The translations under genes were made by a program, and so were the position numbers. The notes under the pieces are model-generated. The model worked only from the letters and a program-made list of their open reading frames with translations. It did not search any database and was not told where the DNA came from. Shown piece by piece: positions 11,342-44,256 of a DNA stretch of 64,000 nt (within the stretch, counting starts at the first letter, position 1; every line of letters starts with the position of its first letter). Source of the DNA: a virus; the UHGV virus genome UHGV-1351333. One strand, written 5' to 3'.

Positions 11342-12067
11342 ATGTCGCAGGATGACCCGTTTGCCCAGCCGCCGGAAGAGGAACCCTGTAGGCCGGGAGG
11401 CGTCACGCAAATCTGGATAGGCGGGGAACATACCATACCGCGGGAAATGCGGGAATGGATGGCCGGGGTACGGGCCTACTGTAGCCGGTTCGACCTTCCG
11501 TACCGCTGTTTGAACGGGAGGCAATGCAAGGCTTTGCTGGCCGAGTTCGGCATTCCGTTTAATGAGACCGGGGGCATCATGTCCCTGACCGACATGGCGC
11601 GGGTCTGCGCCCTGAAAAAATGGGGCGGCTGGTACCTGGACACGGATGTGAAAATCCAATGCCCGGCGGCCTTTCACGACTGGTCGGCTTCCGTTTGCGA
11701 ACGGGAGCCTTCAACCGTGTTTTATAACGCCATCACTTTCGGCTGGATGTACAATCACGGGGTGCTTTACGCCTCCGGGGACGATTCCTGCCTGTTCCTT
11801 ACCGCAATGTTGGACGCGTGCAGAAAAACCTACGGGACAGTGCATGCCTCCGATTCCGGGTGGGGGCTGGAAAGCACCGTCCAGAATATGGTGCATTATG
11901 ACCGTCAATGGGTAGGCTGGCATCAGGGCCTGCCAAAGCGCGTTTGCGATTCCGGCAATCCGACAAGCATGATTAACCATGTGCTTTACGGCACCTGGTA
12001 CGACAGCTCGCACATGGTTCCCGGCATCAAGGACGCGGAGACGTATTCACGGGTTTCCGATTTGTAG
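11342..12067 (+). CDS. glycosyltransferase, GT32-like (DxD sugar-binding region)
   Basis: KKWGGWYLDTDV matches the GT32/Och1-type GG(I/W)Y(L/I)D(T/L)D motif. Confidence 0.55.
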   Translation: MSQDDPFAQPPEEEPCRPGGVTQIWIGGEHTIPREMREWMAGVRAYCSRFDLPYRCLNGRQCKALLAEFGIPFNETGGIMSLTDMARVCALKKWGGWYLDTDVKIQCPAAFHDWSASVCEREPSTVFYNAITFGWMYNHGVLYASGDDSCLFLTAMLDACRKTYGTVHASDSGWGLESTVQNMVHYDRQWVGWHQGLPKRVCDSGNPTSMINHVLYGTWYDSSHMVPGIKDAETYSRVSDL

Positions 12068-12116
12068 CCCAAAATAATTTTTTACAAAAATAAAAAACGG
12101 CGATAGCATAGGCGCC

Positions 12117-12968
12117 ATGCCACGCGAAAAAATCATCATTGCCGTGTGCGGCATTCCTGATACCGGAAAAAGCACCTTTATCGTCAATGCGGCGAAACAC
12201 TTAAATGGCATGGAAGTCCAGCCGGACGCCCTGTGCGTCGAGCAGCAGACCGGGAAAACCATTGCAACCTCGTTCATCACCACCTGGGGCGAACAATGGG
12301 AGCGGGACGGGAAAACCTGCGATCTGGTTTTTGTGGACTGTCCCGGCCACATGCAGTTCCTTCCGGAAATCGTCGCCGGGTTGGCCGCGGCCCATGCCTA
12401 TATTGTCATTCATGACGCTTCCCGCATTGAGGCGAGCAAGGCCTATGCCCGGATGCTGAATGGCATTGCGGGCATGCTTGGCGTGCCGGAACTCGCGGAG
12501 CTTTACAGCCATTGCGACGATACCGGCGAATGCTGCTACAATGTGGGGATTGACAACCGGCTTCCGGGAATCGCCGAAAGAATCATCAAGCGTGCCCTGG
12601 CGGGAGGCAGGGATAAGCTGGTCCATCCCACGGCGTCCTGGCTTGGCTACATCCGGCAGGAACCGTCCGACACGCCGGATGTACGGCATAAAGTGTCCGT
12701 TGTCTGGCTTCCCTCCGCTTCCCGGCTCACTCCGGTTTCCAGGCTTCAGGCGAGGCTTCCTGACAGAACGGTCGAACTTGGGGCGGCGGAATCCGTAATC
12801 GGTTCCATTCCCGGCGAAAAAGACTTTCAGGGCGCCCCGGTGCAGCAAATCAATCTGAACTTTCCCGTCCGGTATCTGGACCCCGTGCGCTGCCTGATTT
12901 ACAGTCCGGAGCTTGGAACGGTCGGAGTCGGAACAGTAAACACATGGAAAACTCAGGCGCTATGGTAA
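12117..12968 (+). CDS. EF-Tu/CysN-like GTPase domain (candidate sulfate adenylyltransferase subunit 1 partner)
   Basis: G1 AVCGIPDTGKST and G3 VDCPGH, as in EF-Tu and CysN (DTPGH). Only the G-domain is present (283 aa) and the G4 NKxD looks degenerate. Location between cysD and cysC supports the assignment. Confidence 0.55.
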   Translation: MPREKIIIAVCGIPDTGKSTFIVNAAKHLNGMEVQPDALCVEQQTGKTIATSFITTWGEQWERDGKTCDLVFVDCPGHMQFLPEIVAGLAAAHAYIVIHDASRIEASKAYARMLNGIAGMLGVPELAELYSHCDDTGECCYNVGIDNRLPGIAERIIKRALAGGRDKLVHPTASWLGYIRQEPSDTPDVRHKVSVVWLPSASRLTPVSRLQARLPDRTVELGAAESVIGSIPGEKDFQGAPVQQINLNFPVRYLDPVRCLIYSPELGTVGVGTVNTWKTQALW

Positions 12969-13174
12969 ATATGCCTATCTCCCGCGACTGTCCTTTTTGC
13001 GGAAAAAATCTGTGCTACAGCACCGGAAAGGACGGCTGCTATTATTCCTGCCCGTCGTGCAGGTATTCCGTCCAGTCCGGGGCGACTGAAAAACAGGCGC
13101 TCGACCACCTTTCCGCATTTATGGCGGCTGTCCGTGAAAAACAGGACGCTCAACACGATAACATCATCCAATGA
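12965..13174 (+). CDS. zinc-ribbon protein
   Basis: CPFCGKNLCYSTGKDGCYYSCPSCRY has two CxxC pairs. ATG at 12965 is in the ORF-track frame 12944..13174. Confidence 0.35.
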   Translation, partial: VNMPISRDCPFCGKNLCYSTGKDGCYYSCPSCRYSVQSGATEKQALDHLSAFMAAVREKQDAQHDNIIQ

Positions 13175-13674
13175 TTATTCTTCTCACCGGTGAAAGCGGC
13201 GTCGGAAAAACGTCTGTGGCGAAAACCCTGATGAATCGGCATCCGGGCATCCTTCTTGACGGAGACGACATGCGGGACGGGTTAAACAGCGACCTTGGAT
13301 TTTCCGACAGGGACATCATGGAGAACATGCGCCGGACGGCGCATATAGCCATGCTGCTGCATGACCAGCTGCCGGATGACCGGCGCGTGGTCTATATCAC
13401 CTGCATCGCCCCGCTGCTGGCCGGGCGCAATCTGGTGCACGAATTATGCGGCCTCCGGCTGTGGGAAATCCGCCTCCAATACGATTACCGGGCTTCCGAC
13501 GACGTAAAGGGGCTGTACAAGGCGGGAACGCCCATGCGGGCTTATGAGGACTATCCCAGCGAGGCGTTGTTGCTCTCCCGCCGGATAAATCGTGTTTACC
13601 GGTATTATAACGATACCGTATGGGCGCTGGCGGCCAGGATAGAAGAGCTGTGGCCCGCGGACAAAACCGCTTGA
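13171..13674 (+). CDS. cysC: adenylylsulfate (APS) kinase
   Basis: P-loop TGESGVGKTS. LDGDDMRDGLNSDLGFSDRDIMENMRR is near-identical in pattern to E. coli CysC [34 protein letters not shown] matches CysC KGLYKKA. Confidence 0.85.
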   Translation: MIILLTGESGVGKTSVAKTLMNRHPGILLDGDDMRDGLNSDLGFSDRDIMENMRRTAHIAMLLHDQLPDDRRVVYITCIAPLLAGRNLVHELCGLRLWEIRLQYDYRASDDVKGLYKAGTPMRAYEDYPSEALLLSRRINRVYRYYNDTVWALAARIEELWPADKTA

Positions 13675-16013: not shown

Positions 16014-16409
16014 ATGATTACAAAAGACACCTGCCGAACGCTGGAAAGCCTGCTGGAAGCATTGCCTTCCTCCAAGGACCGCCGCCGGGCCAATGTGTGG
16101 TATCAATCCGCCCTGTCCGCCGCAGCCACCATCCACCGGGAATGCCCTTATCTGGCTGTGCAGATAGCCATCGAGGATAAAAGGCCCGTGTGCCATATCA
16201 ACGTGCTTAACCTGAAACCCATGAACGAGGGATTGACCAGAGACACCAAAACCGTAACGGAAACGGTCGGCTATTTGCAGATTGACCTGACTTGCCGCTT
16301 CCAGGTGACGGACCGCGAACTGGACGATGACGAGGACCCGGAAGACCAGTACAACCAGGCCGAAGAACTGCTTGATTTCACTACAGACATCATCAATACC
16401 TATGCCTGA
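16014..16409 (+). CDS. hypothetical acidic protein
   Basis: 131-aa ORF with an acidic C-terminus (DRELDDDEDPEDQYNQAEELLD). Confidence 0.45.
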   Translation: MITKDTCRTLESLLEALPSSKDRRRANVWYQSALSAAATIHRECPYLAVQIAIEDKRPVCHINVLNLKPMNEGLTRDTKTVTETVGYLQIDLTCRFQVTDRELDDDEDPEDQYNQAEELLDFTTDIINTYA

Positions 16410-16719
16410 CGCTGATTTAACTCCGGAACGCCCCGCGCGGTATCTGCGCCCTGTCGGGGACAAAGTGCTTGTTTGCCTGCGGGAACGGGAATCCCGCATA
16501 GGCTCTATCGTCATCCCGGAATCCGCCCAGAAGGAAAACTGCTGGGGGGAGGTCGTGGCTCTGGGAACCGGCGTCGATTCGGATGCCTGCCGCCTGAATC
16601 TGCACGACATCGTCTTTATCAGCCCCGCCCAGGGAACTTACCTTGTTTCCGGCCAAAAGGACTTGATTCTTATCGAGGCCGGGCGCATTATGGCCAAGCT
16701 GCTTCCTGACGAGGATTAA
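16402..16719 (+). CDS. groES: co-chaperonin GroES (Hsp10) homologue
   Basis: LRPVGDKVLVCLRERESRIGSIVIPESAQKENCWGEVVALGTG...DIVFISP...LILIEAGRIMAKL follows the GroES pattern (RPLhDRVlV...t.sGIvlp.sa.ek...GeVvAVG.G). Its ATG overlaps the upstream stop (ATGCCTGA). Confidence 0.7.
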   Translation: MPDADLTPERPARYLRPVGDKVLVCLRERESRIGSIVIPESAQKENCWGEVVALGTGVDSDACRLNLHDIVFISPAQGTYLVSGQKDLILIEAGRIMAKLLPDED

Positions 16720-16820: not shown

Positions 16821-17837
16821 ATGACCAATACTTCAAACGCCCCAAAGATTGCCGCCCTGATGTCGTCCTACAAGCGGCCAGCCGACCTCGTAAAACAGAT
16901 TCTGACATTGCTCCACCAGACCTACGACTGCCATATTTTCGTTGCGGTGAAGGGTTTGTCCGAACGGGACGTAAATACCTGCATCCGGCCGCTTTTCGCG
17001 GAAGAAATCAATGCAGGGAAGCTTCATTTATCGTATTACCCGAACAAAAGCCAGTTCAACAACATTCTCGACTGCTACCGGGGTTTTGACATCGGACAAT
17101 ATGATTTGTACTGCAAAATTGACGATGACGACATTTACTTTCCGACCTATCTTGAGGATGTCGCGAAATCCGCCGTCAGCACCAGAAAGACGGACGGGAC
17201 ATATTGCGGTTCCTGGCTCTCCGGCGGCGATTGCCTGATTGCGCAGAAATCAAACCAGAACGGCGTATTCTTTGACCGCGTTCCGGCAAACAACTTCCAC
17301 ATGTTCGGAAACACCCTCTGCATGTCGCGGGAAGACTTGCGGCAGCTTTACGCCATTGAGGCTAACCCGTCCCTGCTCACCCCGGAACGCTACCCGTTCA
17401 TGAACTCGTGGCACGTCGTGCTGGCCGGATTCGTCGAAGACGCGCTGATTCACCGGCTTATCCAGGCTAACGGGGGCGTTAACCGCTACGACGTACTGGC
17501 GGCGGGCAATCCGGATTCCTCCGTGCGCCCGCAGCTCATCACCGTCAACTACGGGGCGAGCGTCGTCAGGGGCGGCCTGTACCAAAATGAGTTCTACCAG
17601 AAAAACGCCCGCCTTGGGCAGATGGAACAGGAGTGGACCGTATGCCTGTATCACCCGGATTGGGGAAGCAGGAAATACAGGACATTCCGCCTGTTTAACG
17701 GCAGGGCCACCGATTTGCACAATATCGACCATGCCGGTTACAGGGAGTTTGACGGCGACACGCTGGTGCTCAAGTGGGACAAATGGGGCACGGAAACATT
17801 TGTCCGGAATGCCGAAGGCGTGTACTGCCTGAAATAG
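16821..17837 (+). CDS. glycosyltransferase, GT2-like
   Basis: N-terminus IAALMSSYKRPADLVKQILTLLHQTY resembles the GT2 signature VsVIiPtyNr...l.SllnQty. DxD-like CKIDDDDIYFP. ATG at 16821 in ORF-track frame 16767..17837. Confidence 0.5.
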   Translation: MTNTSNAPKIAALMSSYKRPADLVKQILTLLHQTYDCHIFVAVKGLSERDVNTCIRPLFAEEINAGKLHLSYYPNKSQFNNILDCYRGFDIGQYDLYCKIDDDDIYFPTYLEDVAKSAVSTRKTDGTYCGSWLSGGDCLIAQKSNQNGVFFDRVPANNFHMFGNTLCMSREDLRQLYAIEANPSLLTPERYPFMNSWHVVLAGFVEDALIHRLIQANGGVNRYDVLAAGNPDSSVRPQLITVNYGASVVRGGLYQNEFYQKNARLGQMEQEWTVCLYHPDWGSRKYRTFRLFNGRATDLHNIDHAGYREFDGDTLVLKWDKWGTETFVRNAEGVYCLK

Positions 17838-20021: not shown

Positions 20022-22262
20022 ATGCCGCCCATACGCACCGCAACATTCAGGAAAGCTTCCCCGGCTCTGCTTTTCAAATCGTACAGACAGTCCAAAGTTC
20101 CGGAAGGCGGTTGGACGCAGGAAAACTTTTATACGGAAAACGGTGTCCGGCTGGTGCAGGACTGGGTAAAAATGAATCGTTCCGCGACAACAAAAAACGC
20201 CAGAATGCTTGCCCGGACGTTAAAAGCCCTGATTGAAAGAATACTCTACGAAATCGCCGACCGCATGGAGGACATCGCGGAGTTGTCCGAAAAAAAGCAG
20301 GTATACGCGTACCAGCGGAAGAATACCGTGTTGTCCGGGGTTTGGGGCAATGTCATCAGCGAAGTTTTGCGCGACTTCTCCGGGGACGTGCAGGAGGCCG
20401 TGCAGCCTTACATGCAAAGCACGGCGGACGACGTTGTGGACAAGGGGCGGCAGTTGCTGGGGTCGTCCGTAACCAGGACGGACACCACGACCATTACCAA
20501 TTCGGTGCGCCAGGCCGCCAGAGAGATAACCAGCGTGCCGGCCACAATCCGGGACAAAATCAACCGCATCATCCAGCGGGAATATGATAAAGGGTCCTCG
20601 GTGTTCGATACGATTGCCGCCGTGCGCCGTCAGACCCCGTCACTGGCCGCCGGCCGCATAGCCACGATTGTCCGCACCGAACTTGGGCGGGCCGCGGATA
20701 TTGCCAATATCCAGGCGGCCATGGAAGGGACCTGCACGCACATGTCGGTTATCGGGTGCGAAACCATTGAACGCACCTACACCTACCGGGGTTTGCCGAC
20801 GTGCAACATCCAAAATGTGCCAATCAACGAATGCATGAACGTCCGGTTCCATCCGAACCATACCGGCTGCTGGGTTCCGTCGGCGTTCAGGCAGTCGGAC
20901 GGCTCGGTTCCGGAGCTGGACCCCCGCAGCAATTCCGGCCACGGCACTTTTGAAACGCAGCAGGAAAACCCGGAAGGAAACAGCGCCCCGTTCCTGAATC
21001 CAAGACCGGCTCCCGGCCCGGAAATGGAAAACCCGGTAACGCTCGCTCCTACGCCGGAACCGCCTCCGGCTCCTATAGATATTCTTCCCCAGGGTTCATC
21101 ATCGCCGGTACTGCCGACCACCCCGGAAAACTGCGGGGCGCCGGTCGTAGGAAGGCCGCTTCCGTCAGGAAGGCCGCCGAAAAATGTAATTGATTTTGAC
21201 GCGCTTCCGGCATCCTACCAGGACACGGAAGAAGTGCGCCATGCCGTTGAGGTGATTCGCAGCCGCGCCAGTTCGGTAACAAGATTCGTTGCGGACGATA
21301 AGGACATTTATGACTTTTTCCGGACGGTCGGAGTTCTTCCGGACGCTATGGAATCCCTTTTGCTCCAGGACATCCCCCTTAATCTGGCGGATTCGATGGA
21401 ACTGGTTATTCGCGCCGGACGCACTTTTGACTGCATCGGCAGCGTAGGCGGAAAACAGTCATTTTTGTATCGGCGCACGATATGCGTAGATGAACAAGGC
21501 CGTCTGTACATCCACCACAACGATTTTGAAATATGGGCGGAGTACCAGGGGAACGGGTACGCGAGAAAACTGCTGCAAAACCAGATTAACTTTTACGATG
21601 CTATCGAGGCCAATTACATCACGATGGCGGCCAACATTGACGTAGGCGCTTACGCCTGGGCCAGATACGGATTTTATCTGACTGACGACGGCGCGGAGGC
21701 ATTGACAAGGCAGCTGCGGCGGGGCTGGAACCGGATAATCACTAAAGATTTGGCTCCGGCCAATCCGACGGACAAGGAAGCGTTTGACGCGTCAATAGCC
21801 CGCTTGGAGCGGATTGTTGAAAAAAACCCGATGGAACCCAAAGACCTTTGGGCTATCGCGTCCGAACACATCAAAGTACGCACCCCGGGGGGCCAGGAAC
21901 GGAAGCTGGGGTATCATGTGCTGTCCGGAACCTACTACAACGCCCGGCTGGACTTGAACGACCCGGAACAGTACGCGCGGCTGGTATCGTACATCAACCA
22001 CAATCCCACAATTAACAAAGGGCGGGAATTGTATTCCGTCGTTGACGGACGCCGCCGGGACGCGCTGCTGCACGCGGAGTTTCTTTCCAGCGTATGGGGA
22101 AACTTCCGGGCAGACTTCGCCGGGGTGGAACAGGCCATACGTTCCGGCTGCCCGGAAGACGAGGCGCTGTGGCTTTACGCGTCTCCGGAATCCGTGGCGC
22201 TTATGGCCCCGCAGTTGCCGCAAGAACTGTACACCCGTTATTTGTCATTGCTTAACCGATGA
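20022..22262 (+). CDS. MuF-like head morphogenesis protein with a ~430-aa C-terminal extension (GNAT-like motif)
   Basis: The N-terminal half (e.g. SVPATIRDKINRIIQREYDKGSSVFD...GRIATIVRTELGRAADIANIQAA) resembles Phage_Mu_F. A Pro-rich linker (PAPGPEMENPVTLAPTPEPPPAP) follows. The C-terminal domain carries WAEYQGNGYARKLL, consistent with a GNAT Q/RxxGxG/A acetyl-CoA motif. Confidence 0.65.
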   Translation: MPPIRTATFRKASPALLFKSYRQSKVPEGGWTQENFYTENGVRLVQDWVKMNRSATTKNARMLARTLKALIERILYEIADRMEDIAELSEKKQVYAYQRKNTVLSGVWGNVISEVLRDFSGDVQEAVQPYMQSTADDVVDKGRQLLGSSVTRTDTTTITNSVRQAAREITSVPATIRDKINRIIQREYDKGSSVFDTIAAVRRQTPSLAAGRIATIVRTELGRAADIANIQAAMEGTCTHMSVIGCETIERTYTYRGLPTCNIQNVPINECMNVRFHPNHTGCWVPSAFRQSDGSVPELDPRSNSGHGTFETQQENPEGNSAPFLNPRPAPGPEMENPVTLAPTPEPPPAPIDILPQGSSSPVLPTTPENCGAPVVGRPLPSGRPPKNVIDFDALPASYQDTEEVRHAVEVIRSRASSVTRFVADDKDIYDFFRTVGVLPDAMESLLLQDIPLNLADSMELVIRAGRTFDCIGSVGGKQSFLYRRTICVDEQGRLYIHHNDFEIWAEYQGNGYARKLLQNQINFYDAIEANYITMAANIDVGAYAWARYGFYLTDDGAEALTRQLRRGWNRIITKDLAPANPTDKEAFDASIARLERIVEKNPMEPKDLWAIASEHIKVRTPGGQERKLGYHVLSGTYYNARLDLNDPEQYARLVSYINHNPTINKGRELYSVVDGRRRDALLHAEFLSSVWGNFRADFAGVEQAIRSGCPEDEALWLYASPESVALMAPQLPQELYTRYLSLLNR

Positions 22263-22975
22263 ACTTTGTCTGGCTTAACAACCAATTCGGCAACCAGCTA
22301 TGGCAGATTGCCGTCGCGACGTTTTTTTTTGGCCGGGGAAACTTCGCCGCAATAACTTCCTATGCCGTGCCGCTGAAAGGAATCGGTTTCCATGCGTTCC
22401 TGCATGTGCCCTGCTTCCCGTTCAACCGGGAGACGAGCGCCTTAGCGCCGCAAACGGTTTACGTCAAAAGAGGAACGCCCCTGCCTCCCGGCACGAACTC
22501 TATCATTGACGGGCAGTTGCAGGACGTAGCCTGGCTGCGCGGATTGAATATCCAGCAACTATTGACGTTTGACGGCATCGATAACGATTTTCGCATTGTC
22601 CATGTCCGGGGCGGCGATTACTTTACCAGCAAATCGCACAAGCCCTACGTCAAAAACCGAGACTGGTATCTTAAAGCCATTGCCGCTGTTCCTGATATGC
22701 GGAAGCATCAGGACAAAATAATCCTGTGCACGAATGATGGAAAATATGCGAAAAAAATCCTTCCTGAATTTCCTATACTGGACGTGCCGCCCTTGACTGC
22801 GTTCCGCCTGATGATGGGTTGCCGCTCCCTGGTAATATCCGCGTCGTCCTTTAGCTGGTGGGCCGGGTATCTAAATCCGTCAGCGCAGATTGCCGCCCCT
22901 TCCCGGTGGTGCGGCGCCGGAGAGGATTCGGCGAAATATTACGGACATAGCCGCTTGATGTTCATACCTGATTAA
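22259..22975 (+). CDS. glycosyltransferase, GT11-like (alpha-1,2-fucosyltransferase family)
   Basis: N-terminal FGNQLWQIA (GT11 motif GNQmFqyA) and IVHVRGGDY (GT11 motif H(V/I)RRGDY). Confidence 0.55.
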   Translation: MNFVWLNNQFGNQLWQIAVATFFFGRGNFAAITSYAVPLKGIGFHAFLHVPCFPFNRETSALAPQTVYVKRGTPLPPGTNSIIDGQLQDVAWLRGLNIQQLLTFDGIDNDFRIVHVRGGDYFTSKSHKPYVKNRDWYLKAIAAVPDMRKHQDKIILCTNDGKYAKKILPEFPILDVPPLTAFRLMMGCRSLVISASSFSWWAGYLNPSAQIAAPSRWCGAGEDSAKYYGHSRLMFIPD

Positions 22976-23188: not shown

Positions 23189-24106
23189 ATGTACGGCACC
23201 AGCCCTATGTTTACCATGCCCGTGTCCTCCGTGGATTCCGGGCGCAGCAATGATAACTACGGAAATTGGAACAATCCGTTTGTGTACCTCGTCTGGATGT
23301 GGGCGTTCTCCATGTTCGGCGGCAATGGCCTGTGGGGCAACAGGAACGGAGCGGGAACCGTAGAAACCCAAGCGATTACCGCGTCTCAGGTCGATGACAT
23401 CAGGGCGCAGGTAGCCGCTATCCGTCAAGGGATTGAATGCGGCGACGCAAATATCATGCGGGCCGTTGACCAGCTCGCCGATACCGCACGCGCCAACCAG
23501 ATTAAAATTGACGGAGGCTTTACGTCCGTCAACCAGAACCTGTGCTCCGGCTTCGGCTCCGTCAACTCCAACATCTGCGACGCTAAGACGGCCGTTCTTG
23601 GCGCCCTCTGCAACATCGAGCACAATCTCGCCATGCAGGGATGCCAGTTCGCCAACCAGATGCAGCAGTGCTGCTGCGAACTCAAGACCGCTATCGGCGA
23701 TGTCGGATGCGGCGTAGAAAAAGGCCTCCTGAATCAGACGATTCAGCTCAACCAGGGACTGTGCGGCGTCAACCAGAACATTCAGCAGACCGGCGCGCAA
23801 ATTGCCAATGGCATTTCCAACCTCGGATTTACCATTCAGCAGCAGTTCTGCAACACGAACAGCCTGATTGAGGCGAACACGAGAGCCGTGCAGGCGGAAG
23901 GCGCCATGACCCGCCAGCTGCTGGTTGACCAGGTGAAGGACGCCGAAATCTCCCGGCTTCGCGGCATCGTCGCTGAAAACAGCCAGCAAAGGCAGACTAC
24001 GGAACTGTTTGCCGCCCAGCAGGCCCAGACGGCTACTCTGCTGCCCCTGTTGCAGCAGATTATCAACAACACGACGAAAACCACCAGCCCCGCGACAGCT
24101 GCCTAA
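23189..24106 (+). CDS. hypothetical Gln/Asn/Cys-rich protein (likely virion-associated)
   Basis: 305 aa with an N-terminal hydrophobic segment. Repeated N/Q-rich units each contain Cys (e.g. VNQNLCSGFGSVNSNICD, NQGLCGVNQNIQQTG). Confidence 0.45.
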   Translation: MYGTSPMFTMPVSSVDSGRSNDNYGNWNNPFVYLVWMWAFSMFGGNGLWGNRNGAGTVETQAITASQVDDIRAQVAAIRQGIECGDANIMRAVDQLADTARANQIKIDGGFTSVNQNLCSGFGSVNSNICDAKTAVLGALCNIEHNLAMQGCQFANQMQQCCCELKTAIGDVGCGVEKGLLNQTIQLNQGLCGVNQNIQQTGAQIANGISNLGFTIQQQFCNTNSLIEANTRAVQAEGAMTRQLLVDQVKDAEISRLRGIVAENSQQRQTTELFAAQQAQTATLLPLLQQIINNTTKTTSPATAA

Positions 24107-24849: not shown

Positions 24850-24876
24850 CGGCTTTTTATATTGGTTATTGCGAGG

Positions 24877-36800: not shown

Positions 36801-37041
36801 AACCTATAAATCCGCGGCTACAGGGACCCTGGTGCGGCAAGGATGGATGGATGTCATCTCGCTTGGCTGGCGGAAGGATTCTGCCGGGGCGTATCTGGAC
36901 CCGAACCGATATGACGAACAGACCACAGGCCCGTACCAGAATGAGGACACGGATTTACTGAAAAAAATCAACGATACGCTTGAAGCTATCCAGGCGAACA
37001 CCAACCCTGACCTGAAAAAATCCTCGGTTGTCTGGGGATGA
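33871..37041 (+). CDS. tail tape measure protein
   Basis: 1056 aa, Ala/Gly-rich with long helical segments. Internal hydrophobic and Ala-Gly repeat block AAGAAGAAGAGAAAGAAGAAIGA. Typical position before the distal tail genes. Confidence 0.8.
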   Translation: MAQANQQAERIIFDAEISSAQSNLAKLRTELNLIIAAATRTNAALSRINLSGMLGGAGAAGKGLSGLTGGGTASKAFAAAQNAATAATNRLTTAMRAGVGTAGAYSRALAGAAASARLLSGTRIGQTINTTRTPLRGAKAESDGLRSSFSGMGLAATGAAVAVLGFATKLTGVIRESSEAAASMQRLNTVFGVLLQSQAKGSALLGEVTQFANATPMNVPELANATRVLLAYGESSTTVMDTLRRLGNIAAGTGQRIDEIATLIGKARQAGRLYGDDLNRLNDRGIPLTATLAKNFGITSMEVRKLVEQGQVGFSALDDAIKTVTNEGGLFYGMLEKTSKDYGGVMSNLEDNILTAKKAFGAPINNALVPVMLDTIEMLQQMKPQFAELGEAMAPVVASLATAFKDMLAWIAENGKQVLALVQTYGPLVAKALALATAVKAAQMVFGALSAIVRGITGTISGFTSIVTAAATAVTNLGSTLDRLAAKYATAGTAARAAGSQIAASSAAMGAAAGGTAGAAAGAAGAAGAGAAAGAAGAAIGALSTGSKVWSVVKGVGGKALSIVGTLAALDALSKTVSGFVSGDAPLSWGTKISYSLAGIAGLVGLIPGVGRLFGVAAEGLAWLGDTLKESDTQEYMRGQYSQALKAAPGRGIKRVYRKNLTELFQSEEAGTRGSRTVSSVQEELRAEISRQTAVLDKQLRENTAISDAQKALLQRRLDYLRSIDDATISRWTEQLLDETRNVAGRAKYDAAIAAEQEAARRSNEERRAAERYGQVKDNRIKLQEAEIRYASGMEQRMFWWRRRRTALQEAQPYVQDLLTGPDTGAYMTEKLGADFRIRGTEDIKKVLDAAGESKDTVIFASENVLNLQKAYEKILDYEKEEQKLREAKQEYDRQEEERARNLGVLKQKIYLDQAYAAGLINAEQRTQYEEQLKALDTAKSLMEAGMGREEAMQMGLASVEAERRAAGQAAIDNAAETYKSAATGTLVRQGWMDVISLGWRKDSAGAYLDPNRYDEQTTGPYQNEDTDLLKKINDTLEAIQANTNPDLKKSSVVWG

Positions 37042-37052
37042 TGTGGTATTAG

Positions 37053-37073
37053 AAATTTGCAATCATTGCAAAT
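37053..37073. repeat. palindromic motif copy 8
   Basis: aaatttgcaatcattgcaaat between the tape measure stop (37041) and ATG 37082. Confidence 0.85.
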
Positions 37074-37081
37074 CGGGAATT

Positions 37082-37879
37082 ATGGCTATTTCACACAACG
37101 GACTTCGGGAACCCATTGAGCAGCCCGGAACGATGACCGTCGAACGGGTATCGGAAGACGGCGTCGTCCGGTATGAAAAATCGGCAACCAGAGTGTTTGA
37201 GGTTCCGAAAGACATGGCGGCGGCCTTCATGCTGACCCCTCCGGCCACTCCAATGCCGGGGACGATATTCCTTGAATCAAGGTGCGAAGAGGAAAATGCG
37301 GAGTGGTCTAAAGTGACGTTCACTTACGGTGAAGACCCTGACGATTCTTCCGGAAGCGGTGGTGACGATTCGGTGCGCCGAACGGTCAACGTCACTACGT
37401 CCCTGGTGGATATCCCGATTCAGTGCTCCCCGAAGTACATTGATATGTCCGGAGATTCCCCAAAGTCAAAAATCCCTGACGAAGATTTGAAGCTTTTGGC
37501 CTACGCCATGTCCGGCCAGTTCAAAGACCCGCGAAACAATACCTATATCAAGGACAGCCTCACATCGGACCTGGCTCGTGAAATTTTCGACTATTTAACG
37601 CTCGGAATCACGCATTTCGCCTATCCGCAGACGGTGATACGCATTTCTTACCCAAAATCCAAAGTAGGTTCCGGCCAGCAGTTCGGCGTTCCCACCAAGA
37701 CGCCGGGGAAGAAGGGCGACGCTATCCCGGTAAAGCTCCCGGAAGACAGCAAGATTGATTTCCAGCTGATTTCCCGGTCCATTAACTACGACGGAAAATA
37801 CCACACAACGGATGAAGAATACCAGTCGTCATCCCCGCTGGGCTGGGCGAATGACCGGAAATTCTGGGGGGAAGAATAA
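37082..37879 (+). CDS. distal tail protein (putative)
   Basis: ATG 37082 downstream of the palindromic motif. In ORF-track frame 37028..37879. Confidence 0.4.
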   Translation: MAISHNGLREPIEQPGTMTVERVSEDGVVRYEKSATRVFEVPKDMAAAFMLTPPATPMPGTIFLESRCEEENAEWSKVTFTYGEDPDDSSGSGGDDSVRRTVNVTTSLVDIPIQCSPKYIDMSGDSPKSKIPDEDLKLLAYAMSGQFKDPRNNTYIKDSLTSDLAREIFDYLTLGITHFAYPQTVIRISYPKSKVGSGQQFGVPTKTPGKKGDAIPVKLPEDSKIDFQLISRSINYDGKYHTTDEEYQSSSPLGWANDRKFWGEE

Positions 37880-37899: not shown

Positions 37900-40350
37900 A
37901 TGGCATTACGGCGCGTACAGAGAGGCGAACCTCTGCGTATCGGTCAGATTAACCAATACGCCGAACTTCTTGGCCAAATGACCGGCGGGGGAAAACTCTT
38001 CCGGGCCAACAGGACCGGCTACCAGATGGACCGGGACCTGAACCCCCTGTTCCCGTTCGAGCTGATGGCCCTGGACGCGCAGTCGAGTACCGGAGGAAGC
38101 GCAAAAGGCGTGCCGTTGGCGGAATCTAAAGACCTGGTCGCTTTTCTTCACCCCGGTTCCGTCACGTTTATCGGTCTGGACGGCATGGCCTCACAGGTGT
38201 TTCCCGTCATTAAAAACCCGAAATACGCTCCTACGGATTCTCCCGGCGGAGGCAATGAAGATGGGGCCGCGGTCAACACCTGGCCCCGCCCCGGCATCCA
38301 GATTGAGCTTGATACGGTGTACGGCGTTCACCTGTTCGCCAAGCTGGAACGGGTGACGATGCAGATAGGCCGTGACCGGATAATTCAAGTGTCGGTCAAG
38401 AAATGGTGCCGTGACCGGACTCCATTCATCGGCACGGAAGACGAAATGGACAGTTCCGCTTCGGATGACGAAGATATTATCCGGACGTTCATTCCGTTGT
38501 TCCGCCCCACGGAAGACAGCGCAATCGAAGGAAACGTTTATGTGGAAAATCTGCATGAAAGCGATTTGATTCTGCCGGATATTCCGCTTGAAGGCGGATC
38601 GTCTTCATCTTCGGCGTCCTCTTCCTCGTCTTCCAGCAGTTCAAGTTCAAGCGGTGGAGTATCGTTCAGCAGCTCTTCATCAAAATCGGAAAGCTCGGAA
38701 TCCGCGTCTTTTTCTTCCTCGTCTTCATCGTCAAGAGGCCCGTATATTGACCCGACGCTGATTTCCGTACCGGCGCGGGAAACCGATTCCGGATTCGGCG
38801 GCATCTACCGCACGCTGAAAGGCTTTAACTTCCCGCCCAGCGATGATAAGCCGGGCATGGCGTATATCATCATTTACAGTCCGGTCGAGGCCTGTGATTG
38901 GGTAAACTTTTCCACCGCCGGATTGGCGGAAACGAAAACGGACCAGCAATGGGAAGGCTATGTCGCCATTGACGATAACGGAAATTGGGATTGCAATGTC
39001 ATCATCGACGAATTCACAGACCCTGAAAATACGGGCGCTCACCGATTCAAGGATTTCAAAGTAGGCTACCGGGCAAAAAAACAAAATACGGCTGTCGATA
39101 TTCTCATTGTTGACCAGTCGCCCCCGGAAATGTCCTCTTCCTCGTCCTCGTCGGCAGAAAGTTCGTCGTCGGAAGAAAAATATTATTTCCGCTTTGTTCC
39201 GAATAACATCACTGTAGACAGCCGGTGGCAGAAAGTTCAGGGCTATATCCGCACCGATTCCCCCTATGGGTGGAAAATCCCGGAAGATTTTGCAGCGCAG
39301 TTTCCTTCCGGAAAATGGGTATCTATCTCCCCGCTGACCGGGAAGGACCACGACAATTTTGAAGTCACGTTCCAGACGAACGAAGAAGGCGCCTCCCGCG
39401 ATAATCTGGTGACAGGCTACGCGCTGACGTCGCGCGGCACGTTGATGCTGACGGCGACCGACACATTAAATGTCACCCAAACCTCGGAAGCTTCTTCTTC
39501 CTCATCGAGCAGTTCAAGCAGCTCGTCAAGTTCAAGTTCTTCTTCGTCTTCCGGTTCGTCGAGTTCATCCCAGGCGGATTGGTTTGAGGTGTTTCCCACG
39601 TCGATGGCTTTCGGCGCAGACGGCAAACCGAAAGATTCCAACAAGGTAAGGTTGCGCGGAACGGTCGAATGGTCAGCTGACACGCAAAGCGCCTGGTGTT
39701 CCATGTCTCCCACGTCAGGACCGGCGCCGGGGGATGCCGGGACGGAAGCCATAATCACCTGCCAGCCTAATGAGGGAGTAAATGGCCGGAGCACGCTCGT
39801 CGAGTTTACCGTTAGTTTGAACGGATCGCCGCAATATTACTATGTCAACGTTATCCAGGAGGGCAACCCTCCCGTGCCTTCATCGGGAAGCGAGTCCTCT
39901 TCCTCGGAAGCTTCTTCCGGGGCCAGCTCGGCCTCGTCAAGCAAGACCGCTATTTTGCCGGTCCGGGGAAAGTTCCTGGGCGTGATGTGCATGGAGTCCC
40001 CGGAAACATGGTTTGTGGACTTCGCCACCGTTCATTTTCCGCTTGGATTGGCGTTAATCGACCGGACGTTCATCGACGTCACCGAACCCGGTTCCATAGC
40101 GGTTGTTTCCGCTGTAGATGATAGGGGCCGCCCCGCGCGGGCATGGCTCCGGCAGGAAGGAAAGTACCTTACCCTGTACGCGAAGCCGCAGGGGTTAAGC
40201 CGCGTATTCCGGCCGCAGTCTGTTATTGTCCAGCTCATCGGCAAGCGTCTGGGCCACCGCGCGCGGTTTCCGGAATTTACGAAAGACCAGTTTATCGCCA
40301 ATGAAGCGTTTTACGCTAAAGCCCACCAGCCGGAACCTCCGGAAAAGTAG
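37900..40350 (+). CDS. tail/receptor-binding protein with three poly-serine linkers
   Basis: 816 aa. Linker 1: [44 protein letters not shown]. Linker 2: [28 protein letters not shown]. Linker 3: [21 protein letters not shown]. The linkers separate beta-rich domains. Confidence 0.6.
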   Translation: [816 protein letters not shown]

Positions 40351-40359
40351 AAAAGTAAA

Positions 40360-40728
40360 TCAGGCCCATATTACGTTTCCGGATTCATCAATATCTACGG
40401 CTTTTTTGTGCGCCAGCCGAGCTTCATTTAATTTCCGGGAGTCCCGGATAACGTCGCCGGTTTCCGGGTATTCCTTGAATACGTTAATATAATTCAATAA
40501 ACGTTCCTTGTCGGAATATACCACGGCCGCATTTACAACATAGAACTTCCCTTTATCATCGTACCGACGGATAACGCTCGTATCCGTGGCGCAACGCCAT
40601 GTGTCAAAGTCGCGGGTAATATAAACGCGCTCATGCGCTCTAAGCCATATCATTGTTTCCCTGGCGATAAACTCCGGAACAAGAGTAAAGAGCTGCTCTT
40701 TTGTTAAAGTAGTATTGCTTATAATCAT
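40360..40728 (-). CDS. hypothetical protein (minus-strand cassette)
   Basis: 122-aa ORF driven by promoter 40783..40811 (-). Confidence 0.45.
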   Translation of the reverse strand: MIISNTTLTKEQLFTLVPEFIARETMIWLRAHERVYITRDFDTWRCATDTSVIRRYDDKGKFYVVNAAVVYSDKERLLNYINVFKEYPETGDVIRDSRKLNEARLAHKKAVDIDESGNVIWA

Positions 40729-40762
40729 ATTGACCCGTGGGGTTTCTTAATGAGAAGGTTTT

Positions 40763-40821
40763 TCCCTCCCTTTGATGAGAACAATTTAACACTATATTTT
40801 AAAAATTGCAAGAGAAAAAAG
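40763..40821. repeat. 59-bp promoter-containing direct repeat, copy 1
   Basis: tccctccctttgatgagaacaatttaacactatattttaaaaattgcaagagaaaaaag, about 85% identical to 41997..42055. Confidence 0.75.
40783..40811 (-). promoter_or_regulatory. sigma70-like promoter on minus strand (TTGCAA-N17-TAAATT)
   Basis: Minus-strand read: ctcTTGCAAtttttaaaatatagtgtTAAATTg. Lies inside the 59-bp repeat 40763..40821. Confidence 0.5.
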
Positions 40822-41033
40822 CATAAAAATGATTTTTTATTACATCAAATCAATCGGCAGCAAATAATACGCGCATTTAATCAGCACGATGCCCGCCAGC
40901 CAGTTAAGAACCGCCATAACCGGCATTCGGTGCTTGATGCAGGAAAAAGTGCAAAGCATCATTTGAGCGCCAAGAATCGTTATGGCCCCGGAAATTAAAA
41001 ATTGCAAAAACATCGATTGGCGGTCAGCGCGTG

Positions 41034-41366
41034 CTAACGTCTTGAAACTTTTATCGCGGAAGGCTCGTATCGGTACACTATTTCCTCGAAACGCTTTTCA
41101 GCATCCGCCAGGGTAGTAAGCGTCCAGCCATAAGTTCCCCAGGAATTGGGGCCCGGAAGATACTCGTCGCCAATCTGGTGGAACTTCGTAGGGGACGTGA
41201 CCGTTTGAACCCGCATAACTTCATAGCTGATTTGTCCGTGTTTTTCCTGCTCATATATAACCACATTTCCCTGCCTTCGGATTAAACGATAATTAAACCC
41301 GTATTTCCGGAACTCGGATTTAATTTTTCTTGATGGCGAAGTTATCGGCTTATCTTCCATGCTCAT
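41034..41366 (-). CDS. hypothetical protein
   Basis: 110-aa ORF. Confidence 0.45.
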   Translation of the reverse strand: MSMEDKPITSPSRKIKSEFRKYGFNYRLIRRQGNVVIYEQEKHGQISYEVMRVQTVTSPTKFHQIGDEYLPGPNSWGTYGWTLTTLADAEKRFEEIVYRYEPSAIKVSRR

Positions 41367-41394
41367 ATTATTTTTTTATTAAAAAAATTGTAGT

Positions 41395-41616
41395 TTAACT
41401 CCTAAACTTGCGCCTCACCCGGCGCATTTTCAGCTCCGAAGAAACAGAAGGAGTATTTGACGCTTTTCGCAGTTCCAGCAACTGGTCCACAGTGCGCTGT
41501 AGAGCAATTATGCCTTTCTCCAATTCCACTTTATTTATCCGGTAATTATCCGCAATCCAGTCTATATTTCTGGACAGGTTGTGCCGGTGTGCGTCTATGT
41601 CCTGCCGCGGCTCCAT
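41395..41616 (-). CDS. hypothetical protein
   Basis: 73-aa ORF. Confidence 0.4.
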   Translation of the reverse strand: MEPRQDIDAHRHNLSRNIDWIADNYRINKVELEKGIIALQRTVDQLLELRKASNTPSVSSELKMRRVRRKFRS

Positions 41617-41642
41617 ACATTTATTATTAACTTTTATCCTCA

Positions 41643-41663
41643 GGGGGGGTAATTCCCCCCCCC
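41643..41663. other. G7-TAATT-C9 homopolymer hairpin between minus-strand genes
   Basis: cagggggggtaattccccccccc. A G-run/C-run inverted repeat is unusual in this genome. Confidence 0.5.
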
Positions 41664-41679
41664 TCCCTGGAAGCAGGAA

Positions 41680-41955
41680 TTAACGCAGATTAAAGATGAA
41701 CTCGTAGCCGCTGGAATACCGGTCAATATCTACGGATTCCACATCCATGCAGGTCATATCCCGCACAAGCTGTTTCAAATGGCGCAGGGCTTTTCCGCAG
41801 CGGGAATCGTCTTCAATATCCTTGGGGTCCAGTTTTACCATTATTGAAGTTTGAGAGATAAGAGAAGCGCTGCGTACTTCGCTGCTGCAAAAATACTTTT
41901 GAAAGTATTTATTGATTTCTGAAACTCCGTTTTGCAGTGTGGTTTTAGTATTCAT
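41680..41955 (-). CDS. hypothetical protein
   Basis: 91-aa ORF, first gene after promoter 42017..42045 (-). Confidence 0.4.
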   Translation of the reverse strand: MNTKTTLQNGVSEINKYFQKYFCSSEVRSASLISQTSIMVKLDPKDIEDDSRCGKALRHLKQLVRDMTCMDVESVDIDRYSSGYEFIFNLR

Positions 41956-41996
41956 TTTTTTCTAACAGGTTTTTTGTTTTTTTTCTCTCAGGAGCT

Positions 41997-42055
41997 TTCC
42001 TCCCTTTGATGAATGTAATTTAACACTATATCTTAAGAATTGCAAGAGAAAAAAG
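41997..42055. repeat. 59-bp promoter-containing direct repeat, copy 2
   Basis: ttcctccctttgatgaatgtaatttaacactatatcttaagaattgcaagagaaaaaag. Confidence 0.75.
42017..42045 (-). promoter_or_regulatory. sigma70-like promoter on minus strand (TTGCAA-N17-TAAATT)
   Basis: Inside the 59-bp repeat 41997..42055, near-identical to the promoter at 40783..40811. Confidence 0.5.
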
Positions 42056-42070: not shown

Positions 42071-42092
42071 AAATTTGCAATCGTTGCAAATT
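42071..42092. repeat. palindromic motif copy 9
   Basis: aaatttgcaatcgttgcaaatt between the minus-strand cassette and GT25 gene 1. Confidence 0.85.
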
Positions 42093-42143
42093 CCGAAAAT
42101 CAATATTGCTCCTAAAAAATCAAGCAATTATATTGGCAAAGAC

Positions 42144-43196
42144 ATGATAACCTTAAACCATCTTGGAATATCCCACGCGGTCATCATTGCCTTGCCGGAA
42201 CGCGCTGAACACGTCGCCCGCCTGAAAAACTCCATGGCCTCCGGGGGCATTGACCCGGAAAACAGCGTTACCCTGCTTCCCGCCTGGAACGGTCGAGAGC
42301 TGTTTCCTCCGAAAAGCTGGAAAGGGACCCGCGGCGCCTGGGGCTGTGTGCAGTCCCATATCCGGGCCTTGCGGCTTGCGGTTAAAAATAATTGGGAGTC
42401 AGTGCTCATCCTAGAGGATGACGCCCTGTTTTGCCGCAACGCCGCCGCCAGATTGCAGACGCTTTTTTCCGCGCTGCCGAAAGACTGGCGCCTGCTCTAT
42501 CTCGGAGGGCATCACCAAAACTGGCCGAAGGAGGTCCACGCGGATTATATCCTGGCCTCCGGCATGACGGCCACTCATGCTTATATCGTCAAACGGGAAT
42601 CTATCCCGTGGCTTATTAAGCACATCGCCTATTATCCCGACTACGAACAGCAGCAATGGGGAGTTGACCAGCAAATCCGGAACGCCGTTTACCGGGGCGA
42701 CATCCTCCAATACGCCCCGCGCTGGAATATCGTAGGACAGCAGCGGCAGGAATACAGCACCATTGCCCATTCCAGGGCCGGGAACCGGGAGCGCTGGTGG
42801 GAGCATTCTCAAAATGACCAGTTCCGCCTGCTTCCGCTTCTGCTGCTGCGGGAGCCGCTAACCGTGGAGGACGTTGACGGGCTTGAGGAACTGGTGGACG
42901 TCGCCCCCGAAAAAAGCGTCGAATGCCTTTTGGAGAAAACAGAAGATATGGCCGGCGCCATCATTGAGGCGCTTTCCTGCAGCGCGCGGGGGGCATTCAG
43001 CCATCGGCGCGTCCCTGCCCTGTACTATACTGACCGTAAAGCCGCGGACAGGTGCGCCCGCCTATGGTCCGCGGAATGCCTGTTTGCTGATGTTGACGAT
43101 TCCGAACAAACCAGGAAATCGCTTATTGCCGCCCTGCGCCGCATTGTCGACTATGCGGAAAATCCGGACATGAACCCGGACGTGAACAATGATTAA
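42144..43196 (+). CDS. glycosyltransferase, GT25-like (LPS/LOS glycosyltransferase family)
   Basis: GAWGCVQSHIRAL and VLILEDDALF match the GT25 signatures G(E/A)xGC(F/L)LSH and (I/L)LEDD. ATG 42144 preferred, because the ORF-track start (TTG 42075) lies inside the palindromic motif. Confidence 0.6.
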   Translation: MITLNHLGISHAVIIALPERAEHVARLKNSMASGGIDPENSVTLLPAWNGRELFPPKSWKGTRGAWGCVQSHIRALRLAVKNNWESVLILEDDALFCRNAAARLQTLFSALPKDWRLLYLGGHHQNWPKEVHADYILASGMTATHAYIVKRESIPWLIKHIAYYPDYEQQQWGVDQQIRNAVYRGDILQYAPRWNIVGQQRQEYSTIAHSRAGNRERWWEHSQNDQFRLLPLLLLREPLTVEDVDGLEELVDVAPEKSVECLLEKTEDMAGAIIEALSCSARGAFSHRRVPALYYTDRKAADRCARLWSAECLFADVDDSEQTRKSLIAALRRIVDYAENPDMNPDVNND

Positions 43197-44256
43197 CTTT
43201 CTTCGCTACACTGCTATGGATTATTTATTTCCGCATTATTTCGACCGGATTGTCGTCATCAACCTTACTAAAAACCCCGAACGGTTTGCCCGCATTGCCG
43301 ATGAATTGAAGTATAAATGCCTGGCGGGGCCTGATGATATTGTCAGGCATGAAGCCGTGCACGGGGATTCCATGCCGCATCCGGCGTGGTACAGGGCCGG
43401 AAACGGGGCGTGGGGGTGCTTGTCCAGCCATATCGAGGCGCTGGAAGACGCCTGGAACACCGGAAGCGAGCACACGCTGATTATCGAGGACGATGCCGTA
43501 TTCGCCAATGACCTTTTGACGCGGTTCCCGGAAACCATGAAGGAAGTTCCGAAAGAATACGGGCAGTTGTACCTTGGGGGACAGCACCAGCAGGCCCCGG
43601 AGGCCCTCAGCGATACTTTGTGGCGCGGCACGTCTGTCAATCGGACGCATTGCTACGCCGTTACCCGGAAGTTCATTCCGGAGATTCTCGCCCATATCAT
43701 GGATTGGGATACCCATATCAAGGCTGCCGGAAACCCGCTCCACATCGACCACACGCTGGAAATCGGGCATCAGCGCAGATACTGGCCCGTATTTTGCCCC
43801 CGGTTCTGGTTTGCCGGTCAGGGGGAAAACCAATCTGACATCAACGGCAGGCCCCAGCGGGAAATGTGGTGGGAGTACTCCGTGAAACAACAGCATTTAG
43901 AGCTTCCTTTGCTTGTGTTACGGACCGCCGACATGCCGGAACACGTTAAAGACCTGGCGTTTGTCGGCTGGCCGTCGGATTTGGACGCCCGCGGCGTCAA
44001 CAGGAAAATCGAAGAGGCTAAAAAAGACAAGGCTACCCTGTTGCGGGAAATCAGCTGGCTGGCGTATGTAGGATTCCAGCACCACAGCCTTCCGGCGGTT
44101 TATCTTCCGGAGCCGGAACCGGTTTCCGCATTGCAGCGCCTGTGGTCCGGTGAGGTTATCGACACGGCGCATGCGGATGATGCGGATATCCACCGGATGC
44201 GCCGCATCCTGGAATTCGCCGATAATCCGGAAATGCTGAAATATAGATTCCGGTAG
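43189..44256 (+). CDS. glycosyltransferase, GT25-like (paralogue of 42144..43196)
   Basis: GAWGCLSSHIEAL and TLIIEDDAVF. Aligns along its length with the upstream paralogue. Confidence 0.6.
   Translation: MINFLRYTAMDYLFPHYFDRIVVINLTKNPERFARIADELKYKCLAGPDDIVRHEAVHGDSMPHPAWYRAGNGAWGCLSSHIEALEDAWNTGSEHTLIIEDDAVFANDLLTRFPETMKEVPKEYGQLYLGGQHQQAPEALSDTLWRGTSVNRTHCYAVTRKFIPEILAHIMDWDTHIKAAGNPLHIDHTLEIGHQRRYWPVFCPRFWFAGQGENQSDINGRPQREMWWEYSVKQQHLELPLLVLRTADMPEHVKDLAFVGWPSDLDARGVNRKIEEAKKDKATLLREISWLAYVGFQHHSLPAVYLPEPEPVSALQRLWSGEVIDTAHADDADIHRMRRILEFADNPEMLKYRFR

Follow-up and report, generated by a model that had tools for sequence, protein, structure and literature searches.

Described systems of glycan modification

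Most phage glycosyltransferases (GTs) are encoded singly, and their usual target is DNA or O-antigen. Chlorovirus PBCV-1 and giant viruses encode their own glycosylation, with soluble GT-A enzymes dispersed in the genome and a known acceptor, the capsid protein. Here we analyzed a stretch of 64,000 nt of the uncultured gut phage UHGV-1351333 (hereafter the window), a ~64-kb portion of a genome of ~85 kb, which encodes a set of five or six predicted GTs together with a sulfation operon. As in chloroviruses and giant viruses, the GTs are several, soluble and dispersed, and giant-virus GTs are among the BFVD neighbours of the model of one of them (the GT2-like protein, below). Those systems are eukaryotic, however, and often have their own nucleotide-sugar synthesis, of which the window phage encodes none. 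Phage-encoded GTs likewise O-glycosylate the virions of mycobacteriophages Che8 and Myrna (Freeman et al. 2023, as summarised in PMC12619734), and a cytoplasmic modification of virion proteins is conceivable here too. In those phages the glycans lie on C-terminal tails of capsid and tail-tube subunits, the host is actinobacterial and sulfation is absent, whereas the window phage has no such tails and does have sulfation genes.

Other comparisons come from the modification of bacterial surfaces. In gtrABC-type O-antigen conversion, and with TarP of an S. aureus prophage, phage GTs lie near receptor-binding genes and alter the host surface, as might be expected here; TarP is also among the top Protein Data Bank (PDB) fold matches of the GT2-like model. 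These phages are temperate and gtr requires a membrane GT and a flippase, whereas in the window phage no lysogeny module was found and the GTs are soluble. Host mimicry in lipooligosaccharide (LOS) or O-antigen involves GT25 enzymes in Neisseria and Haemophilus (LgtB, Lic2A) and a GT4/GT2/GT11/GT6 blood-group-B cluster in E. coli O86. The CAZy families are the same, but those sets are chromosomal and have known products, whereas the present one is phage-borne and includes a sulfotransferase. Sinorhizobium sulfates glycans in the cytoplasm through NodPQ/NodH and LpsS, using 3'-phosphoadenosine 5'-phosphosulfate (PAPS). There, as in the window, a CysD/CysN/CysC-type PAPS supply accompanies a dedicated carbohydrate sulfotransferase; the window genes differ in being phage-encoded and in having a short CysN-like protein without a G4 motif. 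Among Bacteroidota gut phages, 'Gratiaviridae' carry a kinase-ATPase-GT insert between portal and capsid genes, for which capsule modification was proposed (Benler et al. 2021, PMC8008677). This too places a GT in a head module, but it is a single GT without sulfation, in a lineage unrelated to the window phage.

We find that a phage present in hundreds of metagenome assemblies combines an entire glycan-extension set with a carbohydrate sulfotransferase and a PAPS supply of its own. It very probably makes a sulfated, fucose-containing oligosaccharide, as an earlier, sequence-only reading had proposed. This rests on the set of intact, selected GTs, including a GT11 enzyme, on the carbohydrate type of the sulfotransferase and on the PAPS supply. 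The open reading frames (ORFs) named in that reading are all present on the + strand. The genes in question are as follows.

5660..6208, + strand: low-molecular-weight protein tyrosine phosphatase (LMW-PTP), Wzb-like (Pfam LMWPc, 2.4e-7)
6445..7200, + strand: tentative candidate for a sixth GT, with a divergent GT25-like GT-A domain (homology to a two-domain GT)
9802..10515, + strand: sulfotransferase, carbohydrate-type Sulfotransfer_2 (PF03567)
10463..11314, + strand: CysD-like ATP sulfurylase small subunit (PF01507)
11342..12067, + strand: probable GT32-like DXD glycosyltransferase, inside the sulfation operon (PF04488 below threshold; motifs)
12117..12968, + strand: EF-Tu-type GTPase in the CysN position, 283 aa (PF00009)
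13171..13674, + strand: adenosine 5'-phosphosulfate (APS) kinase, CysC-like (PF01583)
16821..17837, + strand: predicted GT-A (GT2-like) glycosyltransferase carrying a beta domain at its C-terminus, flanked by GroES and portal
22259..22975, + strand: predicted GT11-family (alpha-1,2-fucosyltransferase family) enzyme (PF01531, PHROG 2644)
37900..40350, + strand: 816-aa modular serine-rich BACON protein, in tail-tip position
42144..43196, + strand: GT25 glycosyltransferase a, with a C-terminal extension (PF01755)
43189..44256, + strand: GT25 glycosyltransferase b, paralogue of a (PF01755)

Glycosyltransferases of the window

Profile searches agreed with the proposed family for three of the GTs. 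The GT11 ORF matched PF01531 at 44.7 bits (cut-off 23.9; E 1.4e-11) and PHROG 2644, 'glycosyltransferase', at 2.7e-15; the Pfam match covers only positions 163-269 of the 298 in the model, and at 238 aa the protein is short. It contains HVRGGDY and SSFSWWAGYL, which we take to be instances of the conserved GT11 motifs HxRxGDY and S-x-FSWW. By predicted family, it is an alpha-1,2-fucosyltransferase-type enzyme. The tandem GT25 proteins matched PF01755 (cut-off 24 bits) at 36.1 bits for a (E 8.1e-9; also PHROG 854 and 2835) and 29.7 bits for b (E 7.1e-7), and both have an EDD motif (LILEDDALF and LIIEDDAVF). They are 29% identical over 338 aa, including a common C-terminal extension of ~130 aa, and are paralogous along their whole length.

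For the other two, the GT assignment stood only in part. The GT2-like protein gave no Pfam (including PF00535), PHROG or NCBIfam match. Its 17 homologues are mostly 500–560 aa long with an additional N-terminal domain; SxYKRP and KIDDDD are invariant in the family, and PF00535 is present in just two members (P0006, P0010). An AF2 model made from the homologue alignment (pLDDT 75.7) was compared by Foldseek with PDB and BFVD, and the annotated top matches listed were nearly all GT-A glycosyltransferases, with probability 1.0 and E values of 1e-5 to 1e-4 but low TM-scores (0.3–0.4). In PDB they include TarP, K4CP, RmlT and ppGalNAc-T1. Homologue motifs and predicted fold together support a GT-A, GT2-like glycosyltransferase, while strict PF00535 membership is unsupported. 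The GT32-like ORF has the motifs IWIGG and GGWYLDTDV (a DXD in a GGxYxDxD context). A search of 1.8 billion representative proteins returned a single remote homologue, P0023 (E 3.8e-5), itself a clear member of PF04488 at 36 bits. We consider the ORF a probable GT32 glycosyltransferase; its own PF04488 (Gly_transf_sug) score is given below, where the readings are weighed. An AF2 model from a three-sequence alignment was unusable (pLDDT 34).

A sixth GT may lie beside the phosphatase gene. The 251-aa ORF at 6445-7200 had no Pfam match, yet BLASTP aligned it with the N-terminal domain of a two-domain GT, P0017 (7.6e-17). Its hhalign comparison with the GT25 set was weak (probability 50%, E 1.6e-4), with GESD/EDD and THAL/THAY in register.

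No transmembrane (TM) segment was found in any GT or in the sulfotransferase, and the phage GTs are thus all soluble. Neither a flippase nor a polymerase, priming transferase or nucleotide-sugar synthase is among the phage's genes. A phmmer search of PDB with the 816-aa protein, the GT32-like protein, GT11 and the sulfotransferase gave nothing significant.

Homologues of the GT2-like protein on other viral or mobile contigs co-occur with GT4, GT6, GT10, GT11 and GT31 domains and a CMP-sugar synthetase, some of these GT domains being fused into proteins of 750–1076 aa. GT4, GT6, GT10, GT11 and GT31 are families associated with blood-group and Lewis-type structures. As a lead, then, the homologous sets resemble toolkits for blood-group or Lewis surface antigens. 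Giant fusions in two of these contigs (L029 43-9792, L030 8930-17109) join GT31, a methyltransferase and GT11; GT25/GT2-like and GT6; and GT10 and the CMP-sugar synthetase. In three unrelated viral contigs (L031-L033), homologous GT genes adjoin a fibre-like gene and homologues of the uncharacterized window ORFs 23189, 24199, 24936 and 9249. These four ORFs may belong to the same functional cassette as the GTs. The ORFs at 23189-25406 and 9249-9758 encode proteins of 305, 216, 156 and 169 aa, several with hydrophobic N-terminal stretches.

Sulfation operon and phosphatase

The operon, correctly recognized in the sequence-only reading, runs in the order sulfotransferase, CysD, GT32, GTPase, APS kinase. 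The sulfotransferase matched PF03567 at 37.8 bits (cut-off 22; E 3e-9) and has the PAPS-binding-like motifs IPQKCGWT and REPVARFMSAF, presumably the 5'-PSB and 3'-PB elements. The CysD-like protein matched PF01507 (3.4e-28, 99 bits) and has the PP-loop SYGKDS; its best NCBIfam match was CysD, at 168 bits, under the cut-off of 195. We rejected DndC or PAPS reductase as its identity, as CysD models scored far higher and APS kinase and sulfotransferase genes flank it. APS kinase matched PF01583 at 70.3 bits (cut-off 21.1; 2.5e-19), with the P-loop GESGVGKT, and NCBIfam apsK at 63.9 bits, missing the equivalog cut-off.

The GTPase matched PF00009 (GTP_EFTU; 4.2e-11) and has G1 (GIPDTGKS) and G3 (DCPGH) motifs, but neither an NKxD G4 motif nor a match to a CysN-specific model was found. 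From its position, we infer a CysN role. At 283 aa and without G4, it could represent a regulatory subunit that has degenerated or been re-purposed.

The phosphatase adjoins the tail-fibre gene. Its assignment to the LMW-PTPs is upheld by intact CX5RS (C9..R15-S) and DDP (DP) motifs; the NCBIfam Wzb model matched at 1.3e-5, far under its cut-off.

The sulfotransferase had no tblastn match in 50,697 GenBank phage records. Matches to CysD and APS kinase in GenBank 'phages' were misfiled bacterial contigs, faecal fragments of 4–5 kb and one 462-kb uncultured phage, and none of these records has homologues of other toolkit genes nearby. A literature search found no description of a phage sulfotransferase with a PAPS module. 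The phage-borne sulfation module is thus the standout element of the window and, because no GenBank phage has a homologue of the sulfotransferase, phage-encoded glycan sulfation looks new.

Selection and gene arrangement

We calculated dN/dS between the window and an 83.6-kb variant (L014/L021). All toolkit genes gave values of 0.04–0.22 at dS of 0.2–0.9, the same range as portal, capsid and tape measure protein (TMP): 0.22 for the sulfotransferase, 0.05 for CysD-like, 0.15 for GT32-like, 0.08 for APS kinase, 0.08 for GT2-like, 0.04 for GT11, 0.075 for GT25 a and 0.044 for GT25 b. The toolkit genes are intact and under purifying selection.

The toolkit has the strand orientation of the late genes for head, tail and lysis, with which it partly overlaps. 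The GT2-like gene lies between GroES and portal. The head-morphogenesis ORF (20022-22262) ends 4 nt after the GT11 ATG, so that the GT11 start overlaps its stop, and GT25 b overlaps GT25 a by 8 nt.

Relatives with 45–51% portal identity keep GroES, portal, head-morphogenesis protein, protease and capsid, but every toolkit gene is absent near their portal. The distance from TerL to portal is ~2 kb in one relative (L017) versus ~24 kb in the lineage of the window. Because relatives lack the toolkit near portal, we regard the ~24-kb stretch and the GT11 and GT25 inserts as acquired cargo. The toolkit is lineage-specific, without counterpart in distant relatives.

The serine-rich BACON protein

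The 816-aa protein was said to have three poly-Ser linkers; there are in fact four Ser-rich tracts (at about residues 232-278, 411-425, 526-559 and 684-707), which join five modules. One run is 20 consecutive Ser, and other variants extend a run to 24. All six Ser codons are mixed within runs, so what is selected is the amino acid, which sets the tracts apart from slippage repeats. No other real ORF of the window has a poly-Ser run. The sequence-only reading called the protein a distal tail protein, a label that should be taken as putative; it follows the TMP and a 283-aa protein, the post-TMP/Tal position. Its sole domain match, BACON/BACON_2 at residues 563-654, is barely at threshold (~25.7 bits; cut-off 25), and a search for proteins homologous to its N-terminal domain returned nothing.

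In a 683-aa variant that occurs naturally, precisely the module between two of the tracts is missing. Given such a cleanly deletable module, the tracts behave like linkers between independent modules. Polyserine linkers of modular carbohydrate-active proteins were reportedly described by Howard and colleagues in 2004, and the 816-aa protein resembles those proteins in its mixed-codon, pure Ser runs between modules and in its clean module loss. Prevalent gut phages were recently shown to adhere to epithelia through modular BACON and Ig-like proteins (PMC13370021). The window phage, itself prevalent in the gut, similarly has a BACON domain on a virion protein; poly-Ser linkers are not described for the adhesins of that paper, and the BACON score here is marginal. 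Our literature search found no description of poly-Ser phage adhesins.

Acceptor of the predicted glycan

We lean towards a host envelope glycan (the LOS or lipopolysaccharide (LPS) core, or a capsule precursor) as the acceptor, in preference to O-glycosylation of the virion, and give this reading a probability of roughly 0.4. The enzymes would work in the infected cell's cytoplasm, drawing on host GDP-fucose and UDP-sugars and on phage-made PAPS, and would extend an existing acceptor stepwise into a short, host-like oligosaccharide that is fucosylated, galactosylated and sulfated. The acceptor would be lipid-linked at the inner membrane face, and the host's own export machinery would display the modified glycan. 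The altered cell surface could mask receptors, exclude other phages or keep progeny off debris. The phosphatase might disturb tyrosine-kinase control of capsule synthesis, and the poly-Ser tracts would be flexible linkers of a modular BACON adhesin and not an acceptor.

Several features favour a host envelope acceptor. GT25, GT11, GT2 and GT32 are mostly enzymes of LOS, LPS and capsule, and soluble cytoplasmic transferases suffice for extension of the LOS core. The CAZy families therefore fit, and soluble GTs together with host export would be enough; a Wzb-like phosphatase is present as well. The genes occupy classic moron positions, next to the fibre gene and immediately ahead of the spanin/lysozyme cassette. 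A full PAPS pathway suggests high flux, and the island is dispensable in relatives.

Other observations weigh against it. Pfam scans of ~82 kb (the window and 18 kb of flanking sequence) found no integrase or repressor families, and the toolkit is placed amid late genes, where the benefit of surface conversion is less obvious. No membrane component or flippase is encoded. The CysN assignment is contextual, and the PF04488 score of the GT32-like protein (21.3 bits, E 4.4e-4) is under the cut-off of 23. Donor and acceptor specificity cannot be read from CAZy family membership. Finally, in an unrelated mobile or prophage-like element (L022 5209-15731, GCA_965300375.1), a cluster of GT4, GT32/31-like and GT25/GT2-like genes lies directly upstream of a gene for a 1998-aa RHS-repeat protein with two poly-Ser runs, an arrangement that favours protein glycosylation.

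The last point belongs to the main rival, in which the GTs would attach O-glycans to the poly-Ser stalks of the 816-aa protein, and possibly to further virion proteins, in the cytoplasm, with sulfation following, before or during assembly. The outcome would be a mucin-like, host-mimicking and protease-resistant decoration that serves mucus retention or immune evasion. We think this somewhat unlikely. The interleaving of GT genes with late head and tail genes (GT11 overlapping the head-morphogenesis gene), the solubility of all the enzymes, the lack of encoded lipid-carrier machinery and of a detected lysogeny module all suit it, as do the pure, mixed-codon Ser runs of up to 20–24, conserved from strain to strain in a modular, exposed protein. 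Chlorovirus capsid glycosylation is a precedent. So is the glycosylation of mycobacteriophage capsids and tail tubes, as summarised in PMC12619734; epithelial adherence through BACON and Ig-like gut-phage adhesins (PMC13370021) also counts in favour. On the other hand, poly-Ser is confined to one protein. Ser/Thr-rich tails are absent from the proteins encoded between portal and TMP, including the capsid protein and those in decoration and tube position (at most 7–9 S+T per 20-residue window). A plain linker role explains tracts that flank a cleanly deletable module, and none of 18 other viral loci with a GT2-like homologue has a poly-Ser ORF within 10 kb, which leaves the association of GTs with poly-Ser anecdotal. 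No protein O-GT of a Ser-initiating family (GT4 GtfA-type, GT41, GT27) was identified, and an entire PAPS pathway looks excessive for a few copies of a tail protein per virion. The suggestion in the sequence-only reading that the poly-Ser runs are O-glycosylation tracts thus draws weak support from the L022 cluster and is otherwise disfavoured. In its fullest form, the particle would be a sulfated glycoprotein whose BACON adhesin stalks carry a fucosylated, galactosylated and sulfated mimic of mucin or blood-group glycans, made entirely from phage genes; this is doubtful. If that fullest form held, it would give phages their first example of a sulfated virion glycan and be the first case of virion glycosylation beyond actinobacteriophages. 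Such a coat could retain the phage in mucus, hide it from antibodies or bait glycan-capturing outer-membrane systems of a Bacteroidota host.

It is improbable that the genes are auxiliary metabolic genes, without relation to virion or receptors, acting on some other acceptor, such as a small molecule (a metabolite, as with sulfotransferase clusters of gut bacteria), a lipid (e.g. a sulfated glycolipid) or a secreted oligosaccharide. Gut Bacteroides have cysDNC-sulfotransferase clusters that act on sterols, and here too the PAPS genes and the sulfotransferase form a self-contained operon and the enzymes are soluble. Yet the sulfotransferase is of the carbohydrate type (Sulfotransfer_2) and lies in one operon with a GT gene, a set of five or six GTs points to an oligosaccharide as the product, and the homologous sets elsewhere look like toolkits for blood-group or Lewis surface antigens. 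More improbable still is DNA hypermodification, in which the GTs would glycosylate modified bases against restriction, as in T-even phages. Multiple GTs in a lytic-looking phage are the pattern of DNA-glycosylating phages (Pyle et al. 2024, cited in PMC12619734), and this genome also encodes DNA methylases. However, Pfam data for ~82 of ~85 kb contain no thymidylate-synthase-like hydroxymethylase or other hypermodification gene, GT11, GT25 and GT32 are glycan-extending families, and known DNA modifications involve no carbohydrate sulfotransferase. Since no hydroxymethylase was found in these ~82 kb, we rejected DNA glycosylation as unlikely.

Should the product be displayed on host or virion, abundant gut phages would write host-like, sulfated glycan epitopes. 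This would matter for phage receptor biology and adherence to mucus, for how the immune system recognizes phages and for the dynamics of bacterial serotypes.

Host

A Shine-Dalgarno core is present at 9 of 69 gene starts, against a background of 10%, and leaders are A-rich. The near absence of Shine-Dalgarno use and the A-rich leaders resemble Bacteroidota and their phages. The protein encoded at 44258-44902 has a lipobox-like FFIIAGC at its N-terminus, a coiled-coil match and a C-terminal TM segment (KD 2.04), and looks like a unimolecular spanin; a diderm host is therefore implied. The gene starts, the BACON domain and the spanin-like protein together indicate a diderm host, probably of the Bacteroidota. 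A CysD search of genome contigs found nothing that would identify it. The corresponding portal-alignment search returned only prophage-like portals of 25–27% identity, in Elusimicrobiales, Gemmataceae and Saccharibacteria metagenome-assembled genomes, too distant to name a host.

Genome context

The remaining genes of the window, in an order established by Pfam and PHROG scans, are listed here.

3206..5608, + strand: tail fibre or receptor-binding protein, 800 aa (Pfam BppL_N 1.1e-8, Phage_tail_C 7e-5), heading the accessory island
7901-8302: pentapeptide-repeat protein (Pfam 3.5e-45), in the accessory island
16327-16719: GroES (Cpn10), upstream of portal
from 17919: portal (Pfam/PHROG scans)
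20022-22262, + strand: SPP1-gp7-like head-morphogenesis protein (Pfam/PHROG scans)
from 25553: prohead protease (Pfam/PHROG scans)
from 27212: capsid protein, T5-like by tblastn
33871-37041: TMP, preceded by connector proteins
37028-37879: 283-aa protein between TMP and the 816-aa protein
44258..44902, + strand: unimolecular-spanin-like lysis protein, 214 aa, at the start of the lysis cassette
45936-46628: lysozyme
downstream of lysozyme: AAA ATPase, DnaB, PolA, RNase H and helicase (Pfam/PHROG scans)

Long ORFs are almost all on the + strand. The genome had been taken to be ~60 kb; near-complete contigs of the assembly collection that carry the exact portal protein span 83.6–85.5 kb. The collection has the same protein indexed in 317 blocks, for the most part on contigs of 20–200 kb, and sample labels (e.g. 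FENG15-1) suggest human gut studies. This is a very prevalent, uncultured gut virus, siphovirus-like and with a T5-like capsid protein. It has no relative at the DNA level among GenBank phages, as judged by megablast of 22 kb of the window, which gave no match. Between the head-completion genes and the TMP, ORFs of 217, 123, 168 and 191 aa gave no sheath match, and the phage is therefore siphovirus-like. We rejected membership in 'Flandersviridae' because of this absence of a sheath gene, although genome size, the BACON domain and the PolA/DnaB layout are shared with that group.

Outside the window, RecA, RuvC and an N6-methylase are encoded downstream, and ~8 kb upstream of position 1 are TerL, a ParB_N protein and a C5-methylase (4–8 kb in longer contigs). 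The ParB/methylase pair is absent from one variant (L048). Independent short-read contigs (L006-L008) begin ~25 nt inside the window start.

GroES is kept even in the relatives with 45–51% portal identity, and probably helps to fold the T5-like capsid protein. The pentapeptide-repeat protein varies in size (133 aa in the window, 239 aa in L048, 107 aa in L049) and could be a DNA mimic or an anti-defence protein. The stretch at 40351-42032, between the 816-aa protein and GT25 a, is low in GC (42.6% versus ~53%) and contains four small minus-strand ORFs without a family match. It is dissimilar to the ~430 bp that occupy the same place in two variants (L021 and L019). Many short-read contigs and one 84.6-kb scaffold stop just upstream of GT25 a; because so many contigs end there, we regard this stretch as a variable, assembly-breaking spot.

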